Shown: one piece after another, positions 1,321 to 16,770 of the stretch
Layout: the number at the start of each line of letters is the position of its first letter
Numbering within the stretch: the first letter of the stretch is position 1
DNA from: a virus
Lineage: Duplodnaviria > Heunggongvirae > Uroviricota > Caudoviricetes
Length of the DNA: 17,384 nt
Reading direction: 5' to 3' (one strand)
Virus record (IMG/VR): IMGVR_UViG_2657244971_000001
Made by a program: the position numbers and the translations under genes
Notes under the pieces: model-generated
The model's database searches: none
Told to the model about the DNA's origin: nothing
The model's input: the letters and a program-made list of their open reading frames with translations, nothing else

Positions 1321-1425
1321 GTTGAAGCCTGCTTTTTTATACTAAGTTGGCATTATAAAAAAGCATTGCTTATCAATTTGTTGCAACGAACAGGTCACTA
1401 TCAGTCAAAATAAAATCATTATTTG
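1321..1425. other. attL: lambda-type attachment site attL: bacterial B arm, 15-bp core GCTTTTTTATACTAA (1331-1345), then phage P' arm with IHF H' site (TATCAATTTGTTG, 1371-1383) and three Int arm-type sites (AGGTCACTAT 1392-1401, CAGTCAAAAT 1402-1411, AAAATCATTA 1412-1421)
   Basis: Sequence GAAGCCTGCTTTTTTATACTAAGTTGGCATTATAAAAAAGCATTGCTTATCAATTTGTTGCAACGAACAGGTCACTATCAGTCAAAATAAAATCATTATTTG matches the attB left arm fused to the lambda attP P' arm as I recall them; int ends inside the P' arm as in lambda. Confidence 0.9.
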
Positions 1426-2489
1426 ATTTCAATTTTGTCCCACTCCCTGCCTCTGTCATCACGATACTGTGATGCCATGGTGTCCGACTTATGCCCGAGA
1501 AGATGTTGAGCAAACTTATCGCTTATCTGCTTCTCATAGAGTCTTGCAGACAAACTGCGCAACTCGTGAAAGGTAGGCGGATCCCCTTCGAAGGAAAGAC
1601 CTGATGCTTTTCGTGCGCGCATAAAATACCTTGATACTGTGCCGGATGAAAGCGGTTCACGACGAGTAGATGCAATTATGGTTTCTCCGCCAAGAATCTC
1701 TTTGCATTTATCAAGTGTTTCCTTCATTGATATCCCGAGAGCATCAACATGCAATGTTGTTGGGATGGCAATTTTTACGCCTGTTTTGCTTTGCTCGACA
1801 TAAAGATATCCATCTACGATATCAGACCACTTCATTTCGCATAAATCACCAACTCGTTGCCCGGTAACAACAGCCAGTTCCATTGCAAGTCTGAGCCAAC
1901 ATGGTGATGATTCTGCTGCTTGATAAATTTTCAGGTATTCGTCAGCCGTAAGTCTTGATCTCCTTACCTCTGATTTTGCTGCGCGAGTGGCAGCGACAGG
2001 GTTTGTTGTTATATGGCCTTCAGCTATTGCCTCTCGGAATGCATCGCTCAGTGTTGATCTGATTAACTTGGCTGACGCCGCCTTGCCCTCGTCTATGTAT
2101 CCATTGAGCATTGCCGCAATTTCTTTTGTGGTGATGTCTTCAAGTGGAGCATCAGGCAGACCCCTCCTTATTGCTTTAATTTTGCTCATGTAATTTATGA
2201 GTGTCTTCTGCTTGATTCCTCTGCTGGCCAGGATTTTTTCGTAGCGATCAAGCCATGAATGTAACGTAACGGAATTATCACTGTTGATTCTCGCTGTCAG
2301 AGGCTTGTGTTTGTGTCCTGAAAATAACTCAATGTTGGCCTGTATGGCTTCAGTGATTGCGATTCGCCTGTCTCTGCCTAATCCAAACTCTTTACCCGTC
2401 CTTGGGTCCCTGTAGCAGTAATATCCATTGTTTCTTATATAAAGGTTAGGGGGTAAATCCCGGCGCTCATGACTTCGCCTTCTTCCCAT
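1419..2489 (-). CDS. int: Tyrosine integrase, lambda Int
   Basis: 356-aa ORF; sequence matches lambda Int as recalled, including the C-terminal catalytic region (..HELRSLSARLY..); adjacent to and ending within the att P' arm. Confidence 0.97.
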   Translation of the reverse strand: MGRRRSHERRDLPPNLYIRNNGYYCYRDPRTGKEFGLGRDRRIAITEAIQANIELFSGHKHKPLTARINSDNSVTLHSWLDRYEKILASRGIKQKTLINYMSKIKAIRRGLPDAPLEDITTKEIAAMLNGYIDEGKAASAKLIRSTLSDAFREAIAEGHITTNPVAATRAAKSEVRRSRLTADEYLKIYQAAESSPCWLRLAMELAVVTGQRVGDLCEMKWSDIVDGYLYVEQSKTGVKIAIPTTLHVDALGISMKETLDKCKEILGGETIIASTRREPLSSGTVSRYFMRARKASGLSFEGDPPTFHELRSLSARLYEKQISDKFAQHLLGHKSDTMASQYRDDRGREWDKIEIK

Positions 2490-2685
2490 TTCTGATCCTC
2501 TTCAAAAGGCTACCTGTTACTGGTCGATTTAAGTCAACCTTTACCGCTGATTCGTGGAACAGATATTCTCTTCCATCCTTAACCGGAGGAGGGAATATCC
2601 TGCATTCGCGCACCCATCGACGAACTGTTTCAAGGCTTCTTGGGCGTCGCTGGCGAGCGTTCCACTCCTGAAGTGTCAAGTACAT
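2467..2685 (-). CDS. xis: Excisionase, lambda Xis
   Basis: 72-aa ORF (MYLTLQEWNARQRRPRSLETVRRWVRECRIFPP...) overlapping the int start by 23 nt, as in lambda. Confidence 0.95.
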   Translation of the reverse strand: MYLTLQEWNARQRRPRSLETVRRWVRECRIFPPPVKDGREYLFHESAVKVDLNRPVTGSLLKRIRNGKKAKS

Positions 2686-2712
2686 CGCAAAGTCTCCGCA
2701 ATTACACGCAAG

Positions 2713-2733
2713 AAAAAACCGCCATCAGGCGGC
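2713..2733 (-). terminator. Rho-independent terminator candidate on the minus strand (RNA: GCCGCC-UGAU-GGCGGU followed by UUUUUU), between orf55 and xis
   Basis: Plus-strand AAAAAACCGCCATCAGGCGG; on the minus strand a 5-6 bp GC stem with 4-nt loop and U6 tract; the orf55 stop codon lies in the loop. Confidence 0.55.
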
Positions 2734-2892
2734 TTGGTGTTCTTTCAGTTCTTCAATTCGAATATTGGTTATGTCTGCATGTGCTATCTGCGCCCATATC
2801 ATCCAGTGGTCGTAGCAGTCGTTGATGTTCTCCGCTTCGATAACTCTGTTGAATGGCTCTCCATTCCATTCTCCTGTGACTCGGAAGTGCAT
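2725..2892 (-). CDS. Small lambda early-left ORF of 55 codons between xis and ea8.5 (hypothetical protein)
   Basis: Manually translated minus-strand ORF MHFRVTGEWNGEPFNRVIEAENINDCYDHWMIWAQIAHADITNIRIEELKEHQAA (55 aa); below the length cut-off of the supplied ORF track; position corresponds to the 55-codon ORF annotated in lambda. Confidence 0.5.
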   Translation of the reverse strand: MHFRVTGEWNGEPFNRVIEAENINDCYDHWMIWAQIAHADITNIRIEELKEHQAA

Positions 2893-2980
2893 TTATCATC
2901 TCCATAAAACAAAACCCGCCGTAGCGAGTTCAGATAAAATAAATCCCCGCGAGTGCGAGGATTGTTATGTAATATTGGGT

Positions 2981-3262
2981 TTAATCATCTATATGTTTTG
3001 TACAGAGAGGGCAAGTATCGTTTCCACCGTACTCGTGATAATAATTTTGCACGGTATCAGTCATTTCTCGCACATTGCAGAATGGGGATTTGTCTTCATT
3101 AGACTTATAAACCTTCATGGAATATTTGTATGCCGACTCTATATCTATACCTTCATCTACATAAACACCTTCGTGATGTCTGCATGGAGACAAGACACCG
3201 GATCTGCACAACATTGATAACGCCCAATCTTTTTGCTCAGACTCTAACTCATTGATACTCAT
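2981..3262 (-). CDS. ea8.5: Lambda Ea8.5 protein (function unknown)
   Basis: 93-aa ORF with Cys/His-rich C-terminus; size and position after xis match lambda ea8.5. Confidence 0.85.
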   Translation of the reverse strand: MSINELESEQKDWALSMLCRSGVLSPCRHHEGVYVDEGIDIESAYKYSMKVYKSNEDKSPFCNVREMTDTVQNYYHEYGGNDTCPLCTKHIDD

Positions 3263-4957: not shown

Positions 4958-5634
4958 CGCCATTGCTCCCCAAATACAAAACCAATTTCAGCCAGTGCCT
5001 CGTCCATTTTTTCGATGAACTCCGGCACCATCTCGTCAAAACTCGCTATATACTTTTCATTCCGCTCAATCACGACATAATGCAGGCCTTCACGCTTCAT
5101 ACGCGGGTCATAGTTGGCAAAGTACCAGGCATCTTTTCGCGTCACCCACATGCTGTACTGCACCTGGGCCATGTAAGCCGACTTTATGGCCTCGAAACCA
5201 CCGAGCCGGAATTTCATGAAATCCCGGGAGGTAAACGGGCATTTCAGCTCAAGGCCATTGCCGTCACTGCATAAACCATCGGGAGAGCAGGCGGTGCGCA
5301 TACTTTCGTCGCGATAGATGATCGGGGATTCAATAACATTTACGCCGGAAGTGAACTCAAACAGGGTTCTGGCGTCGTTCTCGTACTGTTTTCCCCAGGC
5401 CAGCGCTTTAGCGTTAACTTCCGGAGCCACACCGGTGCAAACCTCAGCTAGCAGGGTGTGGAAGTAGGACATTTTCATGTCAGGCCACTTCTTTCCTGAT
5501 CGGGGCTTTGCTATCACGTTGTGAACTTCTGAAGCGGTGATGACGCCGAGCCGTAATTTGTGCCATGCATCATCCCCCTGTTCGACAGCTCTCACGTCGA
5601 TCCCGGTACGCTGCAGGATAATGTCCGGTGTCAT
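4954..5634 (-). CDS. exo: Lambda exonuclease (Red-alpha, 5'-3' dsDNA exonuclease)
   Basis: 226-aa [43 protein letters not shown]... matching lambda Exo as recalled. Confidence 0.95.
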
Positions 5635-6011
5635 GCTGCCACCTTCTGCTCAGTGGCTTTCTGTTTCAGGAATCCAAGAGCTTTCACTGCTTCGGCCTGT
5701 GTCAGTTCTGACGATGCGCGAATGTCGCGGCGAAATATCTGGGAACAGAGCGGCAATAAGTCGTCATCCCATGTTTTATCCAGGGCGATCAGCAGAGTGT
5801 TAATCTCCTGCATGGTTTCATCGTTAATGGCTTTTTTGCTGGCCCCGTGGCGTTGCAAATGATCGATGCATAGCGATTCAAACAGGTGCTGGGGCAGGCT
5901 TTTTTCCATGTCGTCTGCCAGTTCTGCCTCTTTCTCTTCACGGGCGAGCTGCTGGTAGTGACGCGCCCAGCTCTGAGCCTCAAGACGATCCTGAATGTAA
6001 TAAGCGTTCAT
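5631..6011 (-). CDS. In-frame chimeric ORF: N-terminal ~62 aa like lambda Gam (short form, [43 protein letters not shown]) fused to C-terminal ~64 aa like lambda Bet ([60 protein letters not shown]); probable deletion derivative of gam-bet
   Basis: 126-aa ORF; good Shine-Dalgarno (AGGAG 9 nt upstream of the ATG at 6009-6011); stop overlaps the exo start exactly as the bet stop does in lambda. An in-frame TAA about 19 codons upstream of the ATG excludes a long-form Gam start. Confidence 0.75.
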
Positions 6012-6326
6012 GGCTGAACTCCTGAAAATGGCTGTGAAAATATCGCCCGCGAAATGCCAGGCTGATTAGGAAAACAGGAAAGGGGGGGTTAGTGATTCAG
6101 GCCGTTACCGCGTCCGTCGAGAAAAACTTCCACGAGCAAATCACTGGTATAAGTGCGCTCGATGCCGCGATGCAGATAAAGCCGTCCGCGTAAATTAGCT
6201 GATGCAGTCCAGGTAACTGTGTTAAGTTCTCGTTAACATTAGGGGTAACATAGGGAGTATAAGATAGTGGAATGCATCATTTTATTGTTGCGAAAATGAT
6301 CGAACCAGCTGGATATCGTGTATCAT

Positions 6327-8300
6327 ATGGAACCGATGATAACTTTCATGGAATGTCTCGGTATATATATGAAAATTAGACCACAGCAGCACCTAATTAA
6401 CATCCTGACTTCAACCAAACAACATCATCCAAATTTTACTCTTTTTCTTGGTGCAGGTGCTAGTATCTCAAGTGGTGTTGATAGTGCTGGTGGGATGATA
6501 AGGCGCTGGAGAGATGCTTACACTCTAATGTATGGAGAAGATGCTCTCAAAAAACAAGTTTGGTACGATAAAGATAATGAGTATTCAGAGCTTTTTGAAG
6601 CATTATATGATCAACCAACTCAAAGAAGAGAATTTATTGAAAGTTGTATTACCGCAGCTAAACCATCTTGGGGATACGTTTATCTCACAAATCTATTGGA
6701 TAAAGGCCATTTTAATACAATTTTTACGACTAACTTCGATGATTTAGTCAATGAAGCTTGCTTTACCTTTTCTAATAATCTGAGACCAATAGTGTGTGCC
6801 CACGATTCAAGTATCAACAGCATACGTTTAACCACAGCTCGGCCAAAAATAATAAAATTACATGGTGATTTTTTATTTGACAATATCAAGAATACTATAA
6901 GGGAGCTTGAGTCACTTGAAGATAACATGAGGGCCAAATTTAGACAGTTTGCAACTGAATTTGGCATGATCGTTATTGGGTACTCGGGACACGACCGTTC
7001 AATTATGGATACTCTCAATACGTTATTGCATTCCGGTAGTTGTTTTCCTCATGGGATTTATTGGTGTATCTGTGACTCAGACACTGAAAAACTTTCTGAG
7101 CAACTTAAAAATCTGGCCCGCTTTCCTCATTTTCATCTTATTAAAATTAATGGATTTGATGAGTTCATGGCTGAATTACATTACGCATTAGGCTGTAATT
7201 TGCAGCAAGAGGTAGTAGAGCCATACTCTGCATTATCTAATAAACTAGATAGATATTTCTCTATAGCTGAAGAAGATGACGCAGATGTCCAGCATGAGAT
7301 TATTAAAAGAGATATGAATAATCTTGCTGATCATGTCAGGAGAGTGAATACAGTAAGCCAGTTTGTAAAAAAAATAAAAGTACTTCTTTCAGAGAAAGAC
7401 TCATCGTTAGATGATAATTCGATCACTAAATCTTTAGAAATAATGTTAAAGGAAACTAAATTTGCTGGTTCTCCTGAGGGGATTCATTTTTATAATACCC
7501 CCAATTATTTGATTGCAAACTCTGCATTTCGTGCTGGAGAGTATAATGAATGTGTAGAATATGCTACTAAACATCTGGCTAATGGGAAATCTCTCGAAAC
7601 AGAAGTATTAATACTTCGTTCCTATATTCATTTGGATAATGATTCTGAAATACAAAAGTCAATAGAAAGAATAACAAGTTATAACAAAATGAATGATGGT
7701 GAAGTTGGCAAGCTTGTAAATGGATTAGTGGACTTAATGGATGCTAAAAAATTCAAAATTGCGAATAGCCTTATGGACATACTTGAATCCCGAACAATAC
7801 CGTCTAAACATAAGCAGTTATTGCTTATAAATAGAGTTCTTTGCAACAAATTACAAAAGCAGCCGCTTTCAGCAAAACAGCAACAAGAGCTTGAGGAAGT
7901 GCTGAATGAAGTGATAGATAAAAACGAAGCTTGGCTTGCTCTGGGGGCTGCTATACTTTTAGAAAAATGGGACATTGCTGAAGAAGTGCTATCAGCATTA
8001 GATGAAACTGAGATAGTTACAATATTGACGCAATCAATGCCGATTTTTGACTTGATTTCTACAGAGTTTTATGAAAAGGTCAAGTTAGTAGCTATAGAGC
8101 GTGGTTATAACGTTTCATTCGAAGAAGAAACGGAGTTACCAGAGGTTGTTCCTGCTGAGGATGAGACTCAAAGTCTCAGTCCTGATGTGAGAGAAATACC
8201 TACAGATAAAAAGAAAGCCATAACTCACAAATCAGCAGACAATGATGAGGCATTTGATGGATTACGCACTGGCGAAGAAAGTATAAGCAAACCAGCTTAA
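6327..8300 (+). CDS. SIR2-family (SIR2_2-like, defence-associated sirtuin type) protein with an uncharacterised alpha-helical C-terminal half; candidate NAD+-hydrolysing anti-phage effector. Start ambiguous: GTG 6318 or ATG 6327/6336/6348/6369
   Basis: 660-codon open frame. Motifs seen: FLGAGAS (nt 6444-6464, Gly-rich dinucleotide-binding loop), TTNFDDLVNEA (Asn codon at 6732-6734), KLHGDF (His codon at 6861-6863), IGYSGHD. Asn/His spacing (43 residues) is comparable to the catalytic N/H pair of ThsA and DSR-type sirtuins. AT-rich codon usage by eye, unlike the flanking lambda genes. Confidence 0.8.
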   Translation: MEPMITFMECLGIYMKIRPQQHLINILTSTKQHHPNFTLFLGAGASISSGVDSAGGMIRRWRDAYTLMYGEDALKKQVWYDKDNEYSELFEALYDQPTQRREFIESCITAAKPSWGYVYLTNLLDKGHFNTIFTTNFDDLVNEACFTFSNNLRPIVCAHDSSINSIRLTTARPKIIKLHGDFLFDNIKNTIRELESLEDNMRAKFRQFATEFGMIVIGYSGHDRSIMDTLNTLLHSGSCFPHGIYWCICDSDTEKLSEQLKNLARFPHFHLIKINGFDEFMAELHYALGCNLQQEVVEPYSALSNKLDRYFSIAEEDDADVQHEIIKRDMNNLADHVRRVNTVSQFVKKIKVLLSEKDSSLDDNSITKSLEIMLKETKFAGSPEGIHFYNTPNYLIANSAFRAGEYNECVEYATKHLANGKSLETEVLILRSYIHLDNDSEIQKSIERITSYNKMNDGEVGKLVNGLVDLMDAKKFKIANSLMDILESRTIPSKHKQLLLINRVLCNKLQKQPLSAKQQQELEEVLNEVIDKNEAWLALGAAILLEKWDIAEEVLSALDETEIVTILTQSMPIFDLISTEFYEKVKLVAIERGYNVSFEEETELPEVVPAEDETQSLSPDVREIPTDKKKAITHKSADNDEAFDGLRTGEESISKPA

Positions 8301-8336
8301 TAATTGAACAGTGATTAACTGAGAGTGAAGGGGCTT

Positions 8337-8420
8337 ATGAAGCAGAAAAATATCAACAACCAAAGCAGAATTTCTGAAGAAAGTAAGAAAAAAATCAAGG
8401 AAATGCTTAAAAAACAATAA
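8337..8420 (+). CDS. Lysine-rich 27-codon micro-ORF (MKQKNINNQSRISEESKKKIKEMLKKQ) immediately downstream of the SIR2-family gene; speculative
   Basis: ATG at 8337 preceded by GAAGGGG Shine-Dalgarno-like sequence about 5 nt upstream; ends 3 nt before the terminator hairpin; too short for the ORF track. Confidence 0.3.
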   Translation: MKQKNINNQSRISEESKKKIKEMLKKQ

Positions 8421-8423
8421 ATT

Positions 8424-8447
8424 AAAAGACCCCGCAAGGGGTCTTTT
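8424..8447. terminator. Strong rho-independent terminator (AAAAGACCCC-GCAA-GGGGTCTTTT), potentially bidirectional
   Basis: Perfect 10-bp stem with 4-nt loop, flanked by an A-run on one side and a T-run on the other. Confidence 0.75.
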
Positions 8448-9031
8448 AATAACTATTGGCCAGTTTTTAATGAAATCATGCTTAATACAATGTGATTTTT
8501 TTCACTTGTCGTAGTGCCGATCTGATTGCCATCGTCACAGGTACTCAGTAGCGAAAAAATACGTCTACTGGGTACCAATTATCCTCAATGAGAAGTGCAG
8601 CGCGCTCCAATAAAAAGGTGATTCACCGACAGCGAACTTTGTACACTCGCTTGGTTATGGCGAGCAGGTGATGCTAACCGCCTGCCAGAATGTCACTCCA
8701 CTTCCTCAAGTATCTGAGCGACGTGAAGCCGGTGGCTTGACTTACATCGAGCAAAAATATTTCCTGGCTCACAATAGGGTGCGAGCAATCGATTCAGAAC
8801 GGTATTAGAGCTGCTAATGATCCTTCATATTGCGCCTAAATCCACAAAATTGATTTTCAATAATCAACCCGCCATAATCATCTCATCGGAGCCTGAACAA
8901 CTCCGGTGACTTCTGCGCTAAACGGGGACGTTTATGCGCACACACAATCCAAACTCACTTCTCCCGTCACAGATGCAGAAATGCACCTGCAATTCTTTGC
9001 ATCTAACGTTTGACCTCTGCGGAGGTGAAGC

Positions 9032-10436: not shown

Positions 10437-10521
10437 AGTCAGAGATAACAATCAACTAATACTGTTTTGTTGATTTTTGCTTGTAATTGGCGTTCTGGTC
10501 TGAGTTTTGTGGAGTAAGTTG

Positions 10522-10899
10522 ATGCGTGATATTCAGATGGTTCTTGAGCGTTGGGGAGCGTGGGCGGCTAATAATCATGAAGATGTGACCTGGTCGTCCA
10601 TTGCCGCCGGTTTTAAGGGATTAATTCCTTCAAAAGTAAAATCTCGCCCACAATGTTGTGACGATGACGCGATGATCATTTGCGGGTGCATGGCCCGTCT
10701 GAAAAAGAACAACAGCGATTTGCATGATTTATTGGTGGACTATTATGTCGGCGGCATGACTTTTATGGCGCTTGCACGTAAGCATGGGCGATCTGATTGT
10801 TGGGTTGGCAGGATGCTTCAGAAAGCTGAGGGCGTAGTGGAGGGTATGCTGATGGTGTTGGATCTCCGATTGGAGATGGATGCTGATTGTTCGAAATAA
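10522..10899 (+). CDS. quuD: Late-gene antiterminator Q (phage 82 / DLP12 QuuD type)
   Basis: ATG at 10522 with GGAG 7 nt upstream; protein [33 protein letters not shown]...[16 protein letters not shown] matches the QuuD type as recalled; followed by a promoter-like element and terminator. Confidence 0.85.
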
Positions 10900-10911
10900 T
10901 TAAAGGAAAAG

Positions 10912-10940
10912 TTGCTGTCTGATTGTCATTAGTCTAACAT
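10912..10940 (+). promoter_or_regulatory. Candidate late promoter pR' (-35 TTGCTG, 17-bp spacer, -10 TAACAT) downstream of Q
   Basis: Hexamers read directly from the sequence; the position immediately after Q and before a terminator mirrors the lambdoid pR'-qut-tR' arrangement. Not verifiable without experiment. Confidence 0.35.
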
Positions 10941-11000
10941 TTTAAATGTTGGAATCGCAACGTAGTTATTATCATATAACAGCTTGTTTCCTGATTTAGC

Positions 11001-11027
11001 CAGCCTCCCCAAAGGCTGGTTTTTTTC
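11001..11027 (+). terminator. Rho-independent terminator (CCAGCC-TCCCCAAA-GGCTGG followed by T7), likely tR'-type terminator of the short late leader RNA
   Basis: 6-bp GC-rich stem followed by TTTTTTT on the plus strand. Confidence 0.6.
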
Positions 11028-11054
11028 TAATAAGTATTATTTCGGGTAGGGATT

Positions 11055-11579
11055 TTATTGTTTAACCCATAATAATTCATTGACATTGAATCCCAACTTT
11101 TGAGCGGTTCGCACATAGTCTGCTTTTACTTTATCTGGAATAGTTGGGGTCCTTGCCAGAATCCATAGGTATTCTCTGTTCGGACCACTGACAAGAGCAT
11201 ACTTATACTCATCATCCAGTTTGATTACATTATAGCCACCATAGAAGGGGCCAAAAAACGAAACCTTCAATGCTGCAGTTTTAGTATCTCCAGTAAAGTA
11301 TGCTTTACCTTCGCTCTCGCTCCATTTATTTTTCGTTGGATCGTATCCACGGTTAAGTACACGAATCCCTCCGTCGTTCCGTTTTCCATAAGTAGCGCTG
11401 ACCTGTTCCAGACCACGTTCGAACCGGTTCTCGAGGCGAGCTATTTCATACCATTTTCCGAGGTAGCGGTTGGCGTCAAAATTTGTAATCGGCTGCACAC
11501 CTTTAGGTGGTGTCGGGGCCTTACATGCTATAAGAGTGAAAGAGAGTGCAATGCCAGTCAACACAGGCCATAACTTCAT
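11055..11579 (-). CDS. Blc-like bacterial lipocalin, outer-membrane lipoprotein (moron cargo)
   Basis: 174-aa ORF with lipoprotein signal and lipobox (..FTLIAC); strong similarity to E. coli Blc as recalled (NFDANRYLGKWYEIARLENRFERGLE...KVSFFGPFYGGYNVI...YLWILARTP); AGGA Shine-Dalgarno about 8 nt upstream. Confidence 0.85.
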   Translation of the reverse strand: MKLWPVLTGIALSFTLIACKAPTPPKGVQPITNFDANRYLGKWYEIARLENRFERGLEQVSATYGKRNDGGIRVLNRGYDPTKNKWSESEGKAYFTGDTKTAALKVSFFGPFYGGYNVIKLDDEYKYALVSGPNREYLWILARTPTIPDKVKADYVRTAQKLGFNVNELLWVKQ

Positions 11580-11611
11580 AATAAATCCTGTACTTTTGAT
11601 AGTTGAGAGTA

Positions 11612-11661
11612 AGTATGAAAGATAGATGATTACGACCGATCACTTAAAGAACTTTCATACT
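11612..11661. repeat. Perfect 10-bp inverted repeat AGTATGAAAG ... CTTTCATACT separated by 30 nt, in the divergent intergenic region between the lipocalin gene and the DUF523/DUF1722 gene
   Basis: Arms at 11612-11621 and 11652-11661 are exact reverse complements. Confidence 0.6.
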
Positions 11662-11771
11662 ATATTAGGAATAGTCCATAACAGAAAAATTGTCAGTGAT
11701 GACGCCAGAAAGGCAATTTATTCCGTGCACTACACAGTTTATGTGTTAATGAATTAGTCAAGGGGGAGAAT

Positions 11772-12731
11772 ATGATAAAAAAACCTGTGATTGGAATCAG
11801 CGGTTGTTTGGCCGGTTCTGCTGTTCGTTTTGATGGTGGTCACAAAAGAGCTGACTTTTTAATGGACAAATTAGTGGAATGGGTAACATTCAGACCAGTA
11901 TGTCCGGAAATGGCTATAGGGCTGCCAGTTCCGCGTCCTGCTCTACGTCTTGTGCGCTCGACGCAAGGAAATATACGGATGTGTTTCAGCCACGACCAGA
12001 ATGAGGATGTGACAGAGAGAATGACAGAGTTTAGTCGTTCTTATATGGACAAATTAAAGGATGTATCGGGGTTTGTGGTTTGTGCTAAATCTCCCAGCTG
12101 TGGCATGGAGCGCGTGCGTGTCTATGATGAAAATGGTAATCGAGGTCGTAAAGATGGAGTGGGACTATTTACGAGCACTTTGATGGAAAAGTTTTCCTGG
12201 CTACCGGTTGAAGAGGATGGGCGATTACATGATCCAGTGCTTCGTGAGAATTTTGTTGAAAGAGTTTTTGCTTTGCATGAGCTCAATCACCTTTACAAGG
12301 AGAAATTATCAAGAAGAGAGTTATTAGCTTTTCATAGTCGTTATAAGCTTCAGTTGTTGGCGCATAGTCAGGCAGGCTATAAAGATATGGGACCATTTGT
12401 GGCTGCAATACACGAGTGGGCGGACCTTGAATCATACTTTGAGGTGTATCGTGATAAGCTGATGGCGATTCTCAGAAAACCTGCATCACGTAAAAATCAC
12501 ACGAATGTGCTGATGCATATACAGGGGTATTTTAGTAACTACTTAAGTACACGCCAGCGTAAAGAGTTGAGCGAGGTTATACTTAACTATCGTTCTGGCA
12601 CATTACCTCTTCTTGCGCCGTTGACTCTGCTGAAGCATTATCTGGGTGAGTATCCTAATGATTACTTGCTTACACAGAATTACTTCGATCCCTATCCGGA
12701 CGAACTGGCTCTAAGACTGATGGTAAATTAA
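11772..12731 (+). CDS. DUF523 (TudS-like 4Fe-4S thiouracil-desulfidase fold) / DUF1722 (YbgA-like) fusion protein
   Basis: 319-aa ORF with AGGGGGAG Shine-Dalgarno; N-terminus GISGCLAG..C..C-type cysteines typical of the DUF523 family, C-terminal half resembling YbgA-type DUF1722. Confidence 0.75.
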   Translation: MIKKPVIGISGCLAGSAVRFDGGHKRADFLMDKLVEWVTFRPVCPEMAIGLPVPRPALRLVRSTQGNIRMCFSHDQNEDVTERMTEFSRSYMDKLKDVSGFVVCAKSPSCGMERVRVYDENGNRGRKDGVGLFTSTLMEKFSWLPVEEDGRLHDPVLRENFVERVFALHELNHLYKEKLSRRELLAFHSRYKLQLLAHSQAGYKDMGPFVAAIHEWADLESYFEVYRDKLMAILRKPASRKNHTNVLMHIQGYFSNYLSTRQRKELSEVILNYRSGTLPLLAPLTLLKHYLGEYPNDYLLTQNYFDPYPDELALRLMVN

Positions 12732-13082
12732 TTGTATGCGATATCATCCAAAAGGATGAGTTCCTGCATGCAGGATATTTACAATCGTAAAAACTACACT
12801 ATGATACCCAGAGTGTCAGTTTGTATAAAAACTCTGTTTACGCTGAAGAAACAATTGAGATGCAACTTAAAGTTGGTAAACATGCCAGTCAAAATATATA
12901 ATATTATGATTCCACGCAGCTATATATAATATAACGGATTGGTTTAATAATTTGTCTTTGTGAGTTAAATACATAATTTTATACTTGTGATGCAATGAAA
13001 TTTTCCTTATTGTTGAACTGGCGAATATTGATTTTCCACCTATACTTACCTGGTGTAACCCCAATGATATCAGGTGGATAAT

Positions 13083-13814
13083 ATGCCATACATATGTTCT
13101 ATCATTTTGGTGTTGAACTCGTTTGATGTCCGAATTGGTAAAGAAGATATTTTGTTTAAAAAAGGAAGTGCTGTTCTCATTGATTACAATTTAAAAGATT
13201 TTTTTTCATCAAATATAGATCATGTAATGATCGTAGATGTTGAAGAGAAAACAGTTAATGATTTCTTTAAAAGCAACACACTCTCACCTTTTTCTGTAAG
13301 AAGGTTTTATCCGGCATACTTGATGGTGGAATGTGAAGATTTTTCATTGTTAAAGAACTTGATTGCATGCTTGAATTGTGATGGCAGAACTGTGGATTTT
13401 GTTAGAAATCAAATATCACTTGCATGTCTTGCTATCTTATCTTCAGAGAAAATAGTGCAAAGTTTTTTATTTGGATGTCTTAATAGTTTAGGAAGTAAAG
13501 TTAAGGCTATTATTCACACGGATATATCTGCGGCATGGAGACTTTGTGATATATCTTCAAGACTGTATCTGAGTGAAAGTCTGTTAAAAAGAAAATTAAA
13601 GCACGAAGGCTTATCATTTAGTAAGTTAATTCTTGAAGAGCGAATGGTGATGGCGGAAAGGTTATTAAGCTACAATTTATATTCTGTTGGAAAAGTTGCT
13701 GAGATATGCGGTTATGAAAACACGTCATATTTTGTAAGTGTTTTCAGAAGGTATTTTTGTGTTCCTCCCCATCAATATTCATCAAGATTTTTTTTAGAAA
13801 AAGACATGATGTAA
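13083..13814 (+). CDS. AraC/XylS-family transcriptional regulator (AppY/GadX/Rns-like small activator) in a strongly AT-rich islet
   Basis: C-terminal double helix-turn-helix signature (..LYLSESLLKRKLKHEGLSFSKLILEERMVMAERLL...VGKVAEICGYENTSYFVSVFRRYF); ATG 13083 preceded by AGGTGG; the ORF track starts at an upstream GTG (13074). Confidence 0.8.
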   Translation: MPYICSIILVLNSFDVRIGKEDILFKKGSAVLIDYNLKDFFSSNIDHVMIVDVEEKTVNDFFKSNTLSPFSVRRFYPAYLMVECEDFSLLKNLIACLNCDGRTVDFVRNQISLACLAILSSEKIVQSFLFGCLNSLGSKVKAIIHTDISAAWRLCDISSRLYLSESLLKRKLKHEGLSFSKLILEERMVMAERLLSYNLYSVGKVAEICGYENTSYFVSVFRRYFCVPPHQYSSRFFLEKDMM

Positions 13815-14001
13815 CGTGATGCGTTTTAATGATTTTGTAATTTTCGTATTTGATAATTGTATGATGCTTTCAGCTACGCCAGAATAATCGCGGCGTTTTT
13901 CTTTTTGAATAGATGTTCAAGCCTTACGCTAATGTAACTTCTATACCTTTCCTCTTCGTTCCGAACCGTGTACACCATCCGTTATTTGCGGAGGTGAGGC
14001 T

Positions 14002-15175: not shown

Positions 15176-15312
15176 AATCTTAACTACAATATGATTCATT
15201 TTGATGATTGTTTCATAAGGAACAGTGAAGTAAGATCTAAGAGGAGTTAAATTTTATACAGTATAATCATAATATTGCAGCAAGGTGGTTATAATTGAAA
15301 GAATATTTAGAT

Positions 15313-16770
15313 ATGAATACATCTCATGTAAGAGTTGTTACTCATATGTGTGGGTTCCTGGTTTGGCTCTATAGTCTTTCAATGTTGCCACCAATGGTTG
15401 TAGCATTGTTTTATAAAGAAAAAAGCCTGTTCGTTTTCTTTATAACTTTCGTTATATTTTTTTGCATTGGTGGCGGAGCGTGGTATACAACTAAGAAATC
15501 TGGCATTCAATTACGTACCCGTGATGGGTTTATTATAATTGTAATGTTTTGGATTTTGTTTTCTGTTATTAGTGCATTCCCTTTATGGATTGACTCAGAA
15601 CTTAATTTAACGTTCATTGATGCTCTGTTTGAAGGGGTTTCTGGAATAACAACAACAGGAGCAACTGTAATTGATGATGTTAGTTCATTACCTCGGGCAT
15701 ATTTGTACTATCGGTCACAGTTAAATTTTATAGGTGGTTTAGGAGTTATTGTTCTGGCGGTTGCTGTATTGCCATTATTGGGTATTGGTGGTGCAAAGCT
15801 TTATCAGTCAGAAATGCCGGGGCCATTTAAGGATGACAAACTCACTCCCCGCCTGGCCGATACGTCACGGACACTGTGGATAACTTATTCTTTATTAGGT
15901 ATTGCTTGTATTGTCTGTTATAGACTTGCAGGAATGCCTTTGTTTGATGCTATTTGTCACGGGATTTCCACAGTTTCGCTTGGTGGTTTCTCAACTCATA
16001 GCGAGAGTATCGGATATTTTAATAACTATTTGGTTGAGCTGGTGGCTGGTTCTTTTTCCCTGCTATCGGCTTTCAACTTCACTCTTTGGTATATTGTTAT
16101 TAGCAGGAAAACGATAAAACCTTTAATCAGAGATATTGAACTTCGTTTCTTTCTGTTAATAGCCTTAGGGGTGATCATTGTTACCTCTTTCCAGGTCTGG
16201 CATATAGGTATGTATGACTTGCATGGAAGTTTTATTCATTCGTTTTTTCTTGCCAGTTCCATGCTCACTGATAATGGTTTAGCTACGCAGGATTATGCAA
16301 GTTGGCCCACGCACACGATAGTGTTTTTGCTGTTGTCAAGTTTCTTTGGGGGATGTATAGGTTCAACTTGTGGTGGAATTAAGTCACTTCGATTTCTTAT
16401 ACTTTTCAAACAAAGCAAACACGAGATAAATCAGCTTTCTCATCCCAGAGCGTTGTTGAGTGTAAATGTAGGAGGGAAGATAGTTACAGATCGTGTAATG
16501 AGGTCTGTATGGAGTTTCTTTTTTCTTTATACTCTCTTCACGGTGTTTTTTATACTGGTGTTAAATGGTATGGGATATGATTTTCTTACATCATTTGCAA
16601 CAGTGGCTGCATGTATTAATAATATGGGATTAGGTTTTGGGGCTACTGCATCGTCATTCGGAGTGCTTAATGACATTGCAAAATGTTTAATGTGCATAGC
16701 TATGATTCTTGGTCGCCTTGAAATTTATCCTGTTATTATATTGTTTTCAGGTTTTTTTTGGCGCTCCTAA
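15313..16770 (+). CDS. trkG: TrkH/TrkG-family potassium uptake membrane protein (Rac prophage TrkG-like moron)
   Basis: 485 codons from ATG 15313 (the ORF track starts at an upstream TTG); polytopic membrane protein matching E. coli TrkG as recalled; AT-rich; sits directly after Rz/Rz1, as in Rac. Confidence 0.9.
   Translation: MNTSHVRVVTHMCGFLVWLYSLSMLPPMVVALFYKEKSLFVFFITFVIFFCIGGGAWYTTKKSGIQLRTRDGFIIIVMFWILFSVISAFPLWIDSELNLTFIDALFEGVSGITTTGATVIDDVSSLPRAYLYYRSQLNFIGGLGVIVLAVAVLPLLGIGGAKLYQSEMPGPFKDDKLTPRLADTSRTLWITYSLLGIACIVCYRLAGMPLFDAICHGISTVSLGGFSTHSESIGYFNNYLVELVAGSFSLLSAFNFTLWYIVISRKTIKPLIRDIELRFFLLIALGVIIVTSFQVWHIGMYDLHGSFIHSFFLASSMLTDNGLATQDYASWPTHTIVFLLLSSFFGGCIGSTCGGIKSLRFLILFKQSKHEINQLSHPRALLSVNVGGKIVTDRVMRSVWSFFFLYTLFTVFFILVLNGMGYDFLTSFATVAACINNMGLGFGATASSFGVLNDIAKCLMCIAMILGRLEIYPVIILFSGFFWRS

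Follow-up and report, generated by a model that had tools for sequence, protein, structure and literature searches.

SIR2 NADases are a major effector class of bacterial immunity, and each characterised family pairs the enzyme with a different sensor. Among the described systems, the closest SIR2 domain to the one reported here belongs to SPARSA, which combines a short prokaryotic Argonaute (pAgo) with a SIR2-APAZ protein, and a like layout is found in DSR2 of Bacillus subtilis, where an N-terminal SIR2 NADase is followed by a C-terminal alpha-solenoid, the sensor of a phage protein. The locus analysed here lies in a 17,384-nucleotide stretch of viral DNA (IMG/VR record IMGVR_UViG_2657244971_000001, Caudoviricetes; hereafter the window). 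The window is a lambdoid prophage inserted at ybhC, the att-lambda site. Its longest open reading frame (ORF), 660 codons from a GTG at 6318..8300 on the + strand, encodes a SIR2 protein that an earlier note, made by reading the letters of the window, had put forward as a single-gene defence system. Our analysis indicates that this SIR2 gene and a micropeptide gene behind it very probably form a two-gene prophage cargo operon (6369-8450), and the single-gene claim is very probably wrong, as a conserved micropeptide ORF with a strong Shine-Dalgarno (SD) sequence follows every full-length family member checked. With a probability of roughly 0.6, we read this operon from its sequence as a prophage-borne anti-phage defence system of two genes that acts by depleting NAD+.

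The operon consists of the following parts, where pLDDT is the predicted local distance difference test score of a structure model and TPR/PPR stands for tetratricopeptide/pentatricopeptide repeat.

6369..8300, + strand: gene of the SIR2-solenoid protein, 643 amino acids plus stop, from the RefSeq length and the homologue N-termini; the stop codon is 8298-8300
6369..7238, + strand: SIR2 domain (sirtuin-like, predicted NADase type), residues 1-290, with GAGAS at nt 6450-6464, Asn122 at 6732-6734 and His165 at 6861-6863
7239..8120, + strand: fast-evolving helical linker and modelled TPR/PPR-like alpha-solenoid, residues 291-584, the presumed sensor or regulatory domain
8121..8297, + strand: acidic C-terminal tail, residues 585-643 (net charge -10 over the last 60 residues), predicted to be disordered (pLDDT 29-34)
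8327..8333, + strand: SD sequence GAAGGGG of the micropeptide ORF, read from the sequence, anti-SD duplex -7.1 kcal/mol
8337..8420, + strand: unannotated micropeptide gene, predicted product MKQKNINNQSRISEESKKKIKEMLKKQ, 27 amino acids, isoelectric point (pI) 10.2, between the SIR2 stop and the hairpin
8421..8450, no strand: terminator-like hairpin, GACCCC-GCAA-GGGGTC core with A/T extensions, closing the two-gene unit

The SIR2 protein and its described relatives

The frame at 6318-8300 (+) is a genuine gene. The earlier description of a plus-strand ORF of about 660 codons in AT-rich DNA agrees with the ORF listing and with the base composition, the GC content being 0.34-0.36 over 6501-8500 against 0.45-0.53 on either side. 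The GTG at 6318 is probably a mechanical ORF start and the ATG at 6369 the true one, which gives a product of 643 amino acids. We prefer this ATG because the homologue N-termini in the alignment begin at its position and because RefSeq holds the identical gene (WP_225876873.1, 'SIR2 family protein', 1,932 nt) annotated from there. All residue numbers refer to the 643-residue form.

The translation contains all four of the SIR2 motifs that had been pointed out (FLGAGAS at residues 26-32, TTNFDDLVNEA, KLHGDF and IGYSGHD), and the nucleotides given for the catalytic-type Asn and His agree exactly, being the codons of Asn122 (6732-6734) and His165 (6861-6863). A profile hidden Markov model (HMM) search, suggested in the earlier note as a check, gave a significant SIR2-family match, to Pfam SIR2_2 (PF13289; 50.2 bits against a cut-off of 24.5, E 3.7e-13, residues 117-247). 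N122, H165 and the GAGxS loop (G28-A29-G30-x-S32) are invariant in 38 homologues. The best sequence match among solved structures is the Sir2-APAZ subunit of SPARSA (phmmer E 5e-24, residues 69-270), and TTN122FDD and KLH165GDF of the query align on N142 and H186 of GsSir2. Both of these GsSir2 residues are catalytic, and tetramerisation positions them, switching the NADase on (PMC11452484). By sequence and by structure comparison, the closest solved relatives of the SIR2 domain are all phage-defence NADases. It is plausible that the window protein is an uncharacterised defence-type SIR2 with a catalytic N/H pair, and NADase activity is predicted for it.

An AlphaFold2 model was built on the homologue alignment (mean pLDDT 75). 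Its N-terminal half is a Rossmann-type SIR2 fold, and helices span residues ~310-577, forming a long helical linker and then a paired-helix stack at 379-577; on this model, residues ~310-577 are best described as a TPR/PPR-like helical solenoid. Residues 585-643 are unstructured (pLDDT 29-34), and counting the charges over the final 60 residues gives a net value of -10. The model and the charge count thus agree with the earlier description of a helical C-terminal half that could not be assigned and that ends in an acidic, disordered tail. In the structural comparison, which had likewise been suggested, the SIR2 half matched defence NADases and the C-terminal half came out as the solenoid. Relative to the query, median identity drops from 68% over the SIR2 half to 24% over the solenoid and 14% over the tail; such divergence resembles that of a sensor, and the solenoid is presumed to be the sensor or regulatory domain. 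When residues 290-585 were searched with phmmer against 1.84 billion representative proteins, 16 matches were returned, essentially the same family and fragments of it. We had considered whether the C-terminal domain is a swappable sensor common to other effectors, and rejected the idea for want of support beyond its own family.

The likeness to SPARSA lies in the SIR2 half. The PADLOC Aga_SIR2 profiles match at E 1e-62, over the SIR2 part only, Foldseek also puts SPARSA closest in structure (E 1e-11; Geobacter GsSir2/Ago, PDB 8JKZ, 8JL0 and 8Y80, is an example of the system), and the two share identical TTNFDD and K[LI]HGDF motifs. SPARSA proteins have an APAZ domain, whereas in the window protein the PADLOC profile matches end at ~295-303 and the TPR/PPR-like solenoid follows. 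SPARSA also has an adjacent short pAgo, whereas none is found at the family loci examined, in which the SIR2 gene adjoins phage genes and the micropeptide. In place of APAZ and pAgo there are an acidic tail and a micropeptide partner, and since the protein has neither an APAZ domain nor a pAgo partner it stands outside SPARSA. In Vibrio phage 10N.286.55.B4_PE002 (GenBank PQ189367), a PM2-like (Vinavirales) temperate non-tailed phage, a member of the family is encoded at 1354-3228, and the depositor's automated note on it reads 'pAgo__SIR2APAZ'; on this ground we conclude that the defence finders in current use wrongly take the family for an orphan pAgo partner.

DSR2 matches the window protein in fold over the SIR2 part (Foldseek E 1e-8), and its N133 and H171 are essential. 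However, DSR2 is about 1,000 amino acids long against 643, there is no sequence similarity beyond SIR2, and PADLOC gave no Dsr match at E<=1, a negative that holds for its Dsr2 model, which a distant relative matches weakly. DSR2 acts as a single gene, and the DSR2 literature examined mentions neither an acidic tail nor a micropeptide. With no profile match, about two-thirds of the length and a different C-terminus, the window protein is not a member of the DSR2 family.

Of the single-gene candidates in PADLOC, PDC-S65 is matched by profile PDLC05061 (E 9e-33) over residues 8-328, corresponding to profile positions 18-344 of 592; the overall length is similar, but the C-terminal halves differ. 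PDC systems are untested phage defence candidates (10.1101/2024.01.29.577857). Thoeris ThsA has a SLOG domain and a ThsB partner, whereas the window protein has no SLOG or ThsA profile match and no TIR gene is present at any locus. The window system also differs from SIR2-HerA (Nezha) and from Avs5 (SIR2-STAND) in having no HerA neighbour and no STAND NTPase, and from KomC in that the KomAB partner is absent from the window locus and the homologue loci examined. No AbiH, ThsA or HerA-type profile matched in PADLOC. PD-T7-2 (Vassallo et al.) was considered as an identity and rejected, being a different system of DUF4917-SIR2 plus an ATPase. Overall, PADLOC, Pfam, NCBIfam and the solved structures yielded no full-length match to any characterised system, in line with the earlier statement that the protein fits no named SIR2 system.

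In PHROGs, the window protein is a full-length member of phrog_23427 (1,375 bits), to which no function is assigned. A large sister family, phrog_14359, comprises proteins of about 860-900 amino acids from the same pAgo-type SIR2 clade (45-50% identity) with a longer TPR-like C-terminus, and is widespread in Proteobacteria and Bacteroidota, occurring in Pseudomonas, Acinetobacter, Xenorhabdus, Bacteroides and many viral contigs (e.g. locus L039, 5947-8559); its function is also not assigned. An HMM search of the small ORFs at the phrog_14359 loci (L027-L063 and L113-L133) found no micropeptide.

The predicted micropeptide gene downstream

An ORF of 26-32 codons with a strong SD lies directly 3' of the SIR2 gene in 23/23 of the in-family loci first examined, which came from E. 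coli, Klebsiella, Citrobacter, Vibrio and viral contigs and encode SIR2 proteins down to ~45% identity. After every full-length homologue checked, down to 45% identity and across seven genera, the ORF encodes a Lys-rich peptide of 26-32 residues. It lies on the same strand, with its start -13 to +108 nt relative to the stop codon of the SIR2 gene. The peptides have a pI of 9.5-11.2 and share the pattern MK.K(5-8 residues)K[IL][STN].E[EQ][KR]..L..L[LI].K; that of the window is strongly basic and predicted to form an amphipathic helix. The RefSeq and GenBank records of the examined loci carry no annotation for the ORF, and the peptide has no match in Pfam or PHROGs.

An HMM built from 17 of the peptides was searched against 24,018 small ORFs in 1.65 Mb of loci. 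It matched only ORFs 3' of in-family SIR2 genes (E <1e-6), all others scoring E >=0.2. At the Pantoea, Photobacterium and Aeromonas loci, which lay outside the training set, the small ORF immediately behind the SIR2 gene scored highest, and in the Vibrio PM2-like prophage, also outside training, the same ORF was identified by direct reading. In the conserved core of five close variants, 36 differences fall at the third codon position as against 10 at the first and 8 at the second. At 4/4 independent loci the micropeptide ORF has an SD and is then followed by a hairpin; equivalent hairpins lie 3' of the ORF in other loci, the Aeromonas element being a bare GC stem-loop without a T-run. The terminator that the earlier note had given to the SIR2 gene is present as the hairpin at 8421-8450, but it follows the micropeptide rather than the SIR2 gene.

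The two genes differ in their translation signals. At 8/8 loci the anti-SD duplex of the micropeptide (-6.6 to -10.2 kcal/mol) is stronger than that of the SIR2 gene (+0.9 to -5.1 kcal/mol), whose SD is also weak in the window (-3.4 kcal/mol). Because the SD of the peptide is strong and that of the enzyme weak or absent, the peptide is expected to be in excess over the enzyme.

These observations bear on the reading of the protein as a single-gene SIR2 defence protein, with a downstream ORF that is untranslated or is a spacer or leader before the terminator. RefSeq has no coding sequence at the micropeptide position, the region is A-rich, so open frames come easily, and more distant relatives without the ORF (560-590 amino acids) retain the SIR2-solenoid layout, all of which would suit a protein that works alone. 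We nevertheless judge this improbable: the position of the ORF, its length, its strong SD and its amino-acid motif are all kept to 45% identity in seven genera, the third-position bias and the specificity of the HMM count against it, and the ORF is lost along with the acidic tail.

This last point rests on a comparison of relatives with and without the peptide. An acidic low-complexity tail is present in 20/20 peptide-bearing relatives and in 0/5 peptide-less ones. The net charge of the last 60 residues is -9 to -19 in 18 of the 20 peptide-bearing proteins, and -5 to -7 in the other two, Vibrio proteins whose peptide ORF overlaps the SIR2 stop codon. The five more distant relatives (559-580 amino acids) have neither tail (net -1 to +9) nor peptide. 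Since tail and peptide occur together in all 20 and are both absent from all five, they appear to have been gained and kept together. Behind one peptide-less relative, of 559 amino acids, three co-oriented genes are found at locus L142 (6136-7804), encoding 150, 310 (weak HATPase_c match) and 95 (weak DUF4325 match) residues, and this set may represent alternative partners for the tail-less branch of the family.

Two other explanations of the small ORF were tried and rejected. For an RNA element in place of a peptide, Rfam gave nothing in the window, and folding gave the terminator hairpin alone with the ORF region unstructured. Mimicry of an enzyme-internal helix by the micropeptide (KKIKVLL and LEIMLKE are alike by eye) was assessed by local alignments of 20 cognate peptide/enzyme pairs against shuffled peptides, which gave z from -0.9 to +2.3 in inconsistent regions.

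A TPR-type gene followed by a small peptide gene is also the arrangement of RRNPP systems, and the solenoid could in principle be the receptor of a co-encoded peptide that reports on population or lysogeny state and tunes SIR2 activity. An RRNPP pro-peptide, however, has an N-terminal secretion signal, whereas the micropeptides have none, being charged throughout with no hydrophobic stretch, and of the explanations weighed here we regard this one as the least probable. A closer precedent in gene order is SoFic, a defence protein long seen as a single gene whose toxicity is controlled by the small downstream AS1 (PMC12249575). The order of effector gene and small gene is the same as in the SIR2-micropeptide unit, whereas the effector, a FIC AMPylase, is unrelated.

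Proposed mechanism and alternative roles

As read from its sequences, the family would join a known logic, that of a SIR2 NADase-type defence with a solenoid sensor, to a module that would be new, the unusual conserved pair of micropeptide and acidic tail. With SoFic/AS1 as the precedent, the micropeptide is taken to have a regulatory role; most plausibly it would be a labile inhibitor, present in excess and in contact with either the acidic tail or the solenoid. In an uninfected cell the enzyme would be made at a low level, as proposed because the SD of the SIR2 gene is weak, and would be kept inactive: the micropeptide, being in excess, would act as a negative regulator or 'micro-antitoxin' bound to the acidic tail, the solenoid groove or both. 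During infection the solenoid would recognise a phage component, or the short-lived peptide would be lost or displaced. The SIR2 domains would then oligomerise, as in SPARSA, ThsA, DSR2 and Avs5, NAD+ would be hydrolysed and phage replication would abort. More tentatively, and with the odds against it in our view, the micropeptide may be the enzyme's key regulatory ligand and form, with the co-inherited acidic tail, an electrostatic latch on the SIR2 NADase. As the peptide would be strongly translated and is probably short-lived, the pair would be a 'translation/proteolysis guard' that fires once a phage displaces the micropeptide or stops the expression of host genes.

Two co-transcribed genes on one strand, one of them small, with a hairpin after the second, also fit a type II toxin-antitoxin-like pair, as judged from the sequence. 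The SIR2 protein would then be the toxin and a labile micropeptide the antitoxin, with the stabilisation of a prophage or genomic island as the chief role. The far stronger SD of the small partner points in this direction, as do the persistence of the unit in a decayed prophage without immunity, replication and recombination genes and the chromosomal single-locus copies in Vibrio and Aeromonas. A simple toxin, however, would have no use for a large, fast-diverging solenoid, which is typical of sensors, and all of the closest SIR2 relatives are infection-triggered defence effectors, and we hold addiction as the chief role to be unlikely. Many toxin-antitoxin modules also serve in abortive infection, which makes the two roles compatible.

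Several points weigh against a NAD+-depleting defence operon. SIR2 domains can also be ADP-ribosyltransferases or deacylases. No defence-island neighbours surround the chromosomal Vibrio and Aeromonas copies, and within the literature searched there is nothing on this SIR2 family, PDC-S65 or WP_225876873. Other frames are open as well in the A-rich micropeptide region, and the charge of the peptide shows no obvious quantitative correlation with that of the tail. Finally, the + strand of 6216-6368 holds no consensus sigma-70 promoter; as the rightward early promoter region has also been deleted (see below), expression of the operon in the window is uncertain.

The first of these points leads to a reading in which the SIR2 domain would use NAD+ to modify a specific target, ADP-ribosylating or deacylating a protein or nucleic acid of the host or the phage that the solenoid selects, and NAD+ would not be depleted; superinfection exclusion or host reprogramming are possible examples. 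This carries about the same low weight as the addiction reading. The best sequence and structure matches are NADase-type defence SIR2s rather than SirTM or CobB, the CobB-type NCBIfam matches are insignificant, and no macro-domain partner is encoded near the SIR2 gene at the loci examined.

If the defence role is confirmed, the family would add a compact SIR2-solenoid architecture to those described, and a peptide of ~27 residues, invisible to gene callers, would be an integral part of an immune system. The family is carried by tailed and non-tailed prophages, and pipelines label it an orphan pAgo-associated SIR2 or just 'SIR2 family protein'. Were a defence sensor indeed built in part from a microprotein, other 'single-gene' defence proteins may hide unannotated micro-partners; this would have consequences for the discovery of defence systems, because 'single-gene' constructs may accidentally include or lack the partner. 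The SIR2-micropeptide unit could also serve as a simple model for microprotein control of toxic enzymes. Specialists would not be surprised by another SIR2 defence architecture; the micro-partner, which is universally conserved and unannotated, gives a concrete lead that can easily be tested.

Distribution and prophage context

Databases list >2,000 relatives of the family from Enterobacteriaceae, Vibrionaceae and Aeromonas, and full-length members are also encoded on 18 IMG/VR viral contigs. Prophages of Citrobacter and Klebsiella carry the SIR2 homologue, as E. coli does, in the interval from P to nin, with the replication/DinI block on one side and RusA/Q on the other. In Photobacterium and in a Rac-like Klebsiella prophage it directly follows a cI-type repressor gene in the same orientation, which is the position of rexAB in lambda. 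It adjoins the integrase in the Vibrio PM2-like non-tailed prophage, lies at the prophage end in Pantoea and occurs as isolated chromosomal copies in Vibrio and Aeromonas. The SIR2-micropeptide unit is low-GC cargo that moves between prophage slots and mobile elements. The claim that it is prophage-borne cargo had been made earlier and holds, the gene having 35% GC against ~50% in its flanks and recurring in prophages of several genera. In the lambdoid Citrobacter prophage (L009/L010/L011, 1308-7170), a full operon for arsenic resistance, arsR-D-A-B-C together with arsP, separates P from the DinI/SIR2 cassette. Among SIR2-TPR proteins of greater distance, one is encoded by a Haloferax virus.

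The SIR2 gene is present in 26/5,426 complete E. coli genomes, where it lies between P and ybcN/nin on the strand of the rightward early genes. Comparison by blastn with the intact prophage of E. coli strain ZH193 (L001) places window 5825-6215 on L001 3240-3628 and window 6215-10881 on L001 9001-13667, and it defines two deletions. The features affected are:

5631-6011, - strand: in-frame Gam-Bet fusion ORF, matching Pfam Gam positions 2-64 of 98, the rest being the Bet C-terminus
6089..6215, - strand: 3' remnant of kil, cut by the deletion, from comparison with the ZH193 prophage
6215, no strand: deletion junction, with 5,372 bp missing relative to the ZH193 prophage; the 5' end of kil, the immunity region, O and P are lost
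6216..6368, + strand: retained upstream region, collinear with L001 9001-9154

The 5,372-bp deletion joins the truncated kil to the base just after replication gene P. The second, of 704 bp, joins residues 1-62 of Gam to the C-terminus of Bet (junction ~5825-5827), a fusion by which the Red recombination module has been destroyed. The 6215 junction is found in no complete E. coli genome, the 26 carriers among them, nor in the three IMG/VR contigs that encode the identical protein.

These deletions account for two features of the window that had been read differently. The location of the SIR2 gene where the immunity region should be was produced by the 5,372-bp deletion, the order in intact relatives being P-SIR2-ybcN/nin. 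Its orientation against the early-left operon had been taken as the signature of a moron, but in intact relatives the gene is co-oriented with the rightward early genes; since the apparent placement was created by the deletion, this orientation is no sign of an independent moron.

In the retained upstream region, 6216-6284 is post-P DNA of the E. coli prophage, and 6285-6368 is the 3' remnant of a gene for 81-91 amino acids that lies ahead of the SIR2 gene in the cassettes of Klebsiella and Citrobacter. The remnant compares as KMIEPAGYRVSY against KMIEKAGYRVSY, with nucleotide homology beginning at 6285. The full upstream ORF was considered as an obligatory partner of the SIR2 gene and rejected, its last ~15 codons being all that is left in E. 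coli and the ORF being absent outside Klebsiella and Citrobacter.

Downstream of the operon, window 8578-8790 (+) corresponds to L001 11364-11576, a frameshifted fragment of a P22AR (antirepressor) C-terminal domain according to RefSeq in the intact relatives. As this fragment sits just downstream of the SIR2 operon, it suggests that the cassette landed in or beside a decayed antirepressor gene. Further on, window 10900-14000 holds non-phage cargo between antiterminator Q (10507-10899) and the lysis genes, the slot of stx in Stx phages. The genes found after Q and after the lysis genes are:

11055-11579, - strand: Blc-like lipoprotein gene, cargo after Q
11772-12731: DUF523/DUF1722 'YbgA'/2-thiouracil desulfurase-like gene, cargo after Q
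13074-13814: gene of an AraC-family regulator, GC 32-36%, cargo after Q
15295-16770, + strand: TrkG/TrkH potassium transporter gene, 491 amino acids, directly behind the lysis genes, an arrangement shared with the Rac prophage

Because the TrkG/TrkH gene follows the lysis genes in the manner of Rac, we regard the prophage as a mosaic of lambda-att, DLP12-like and Rac-like parts.

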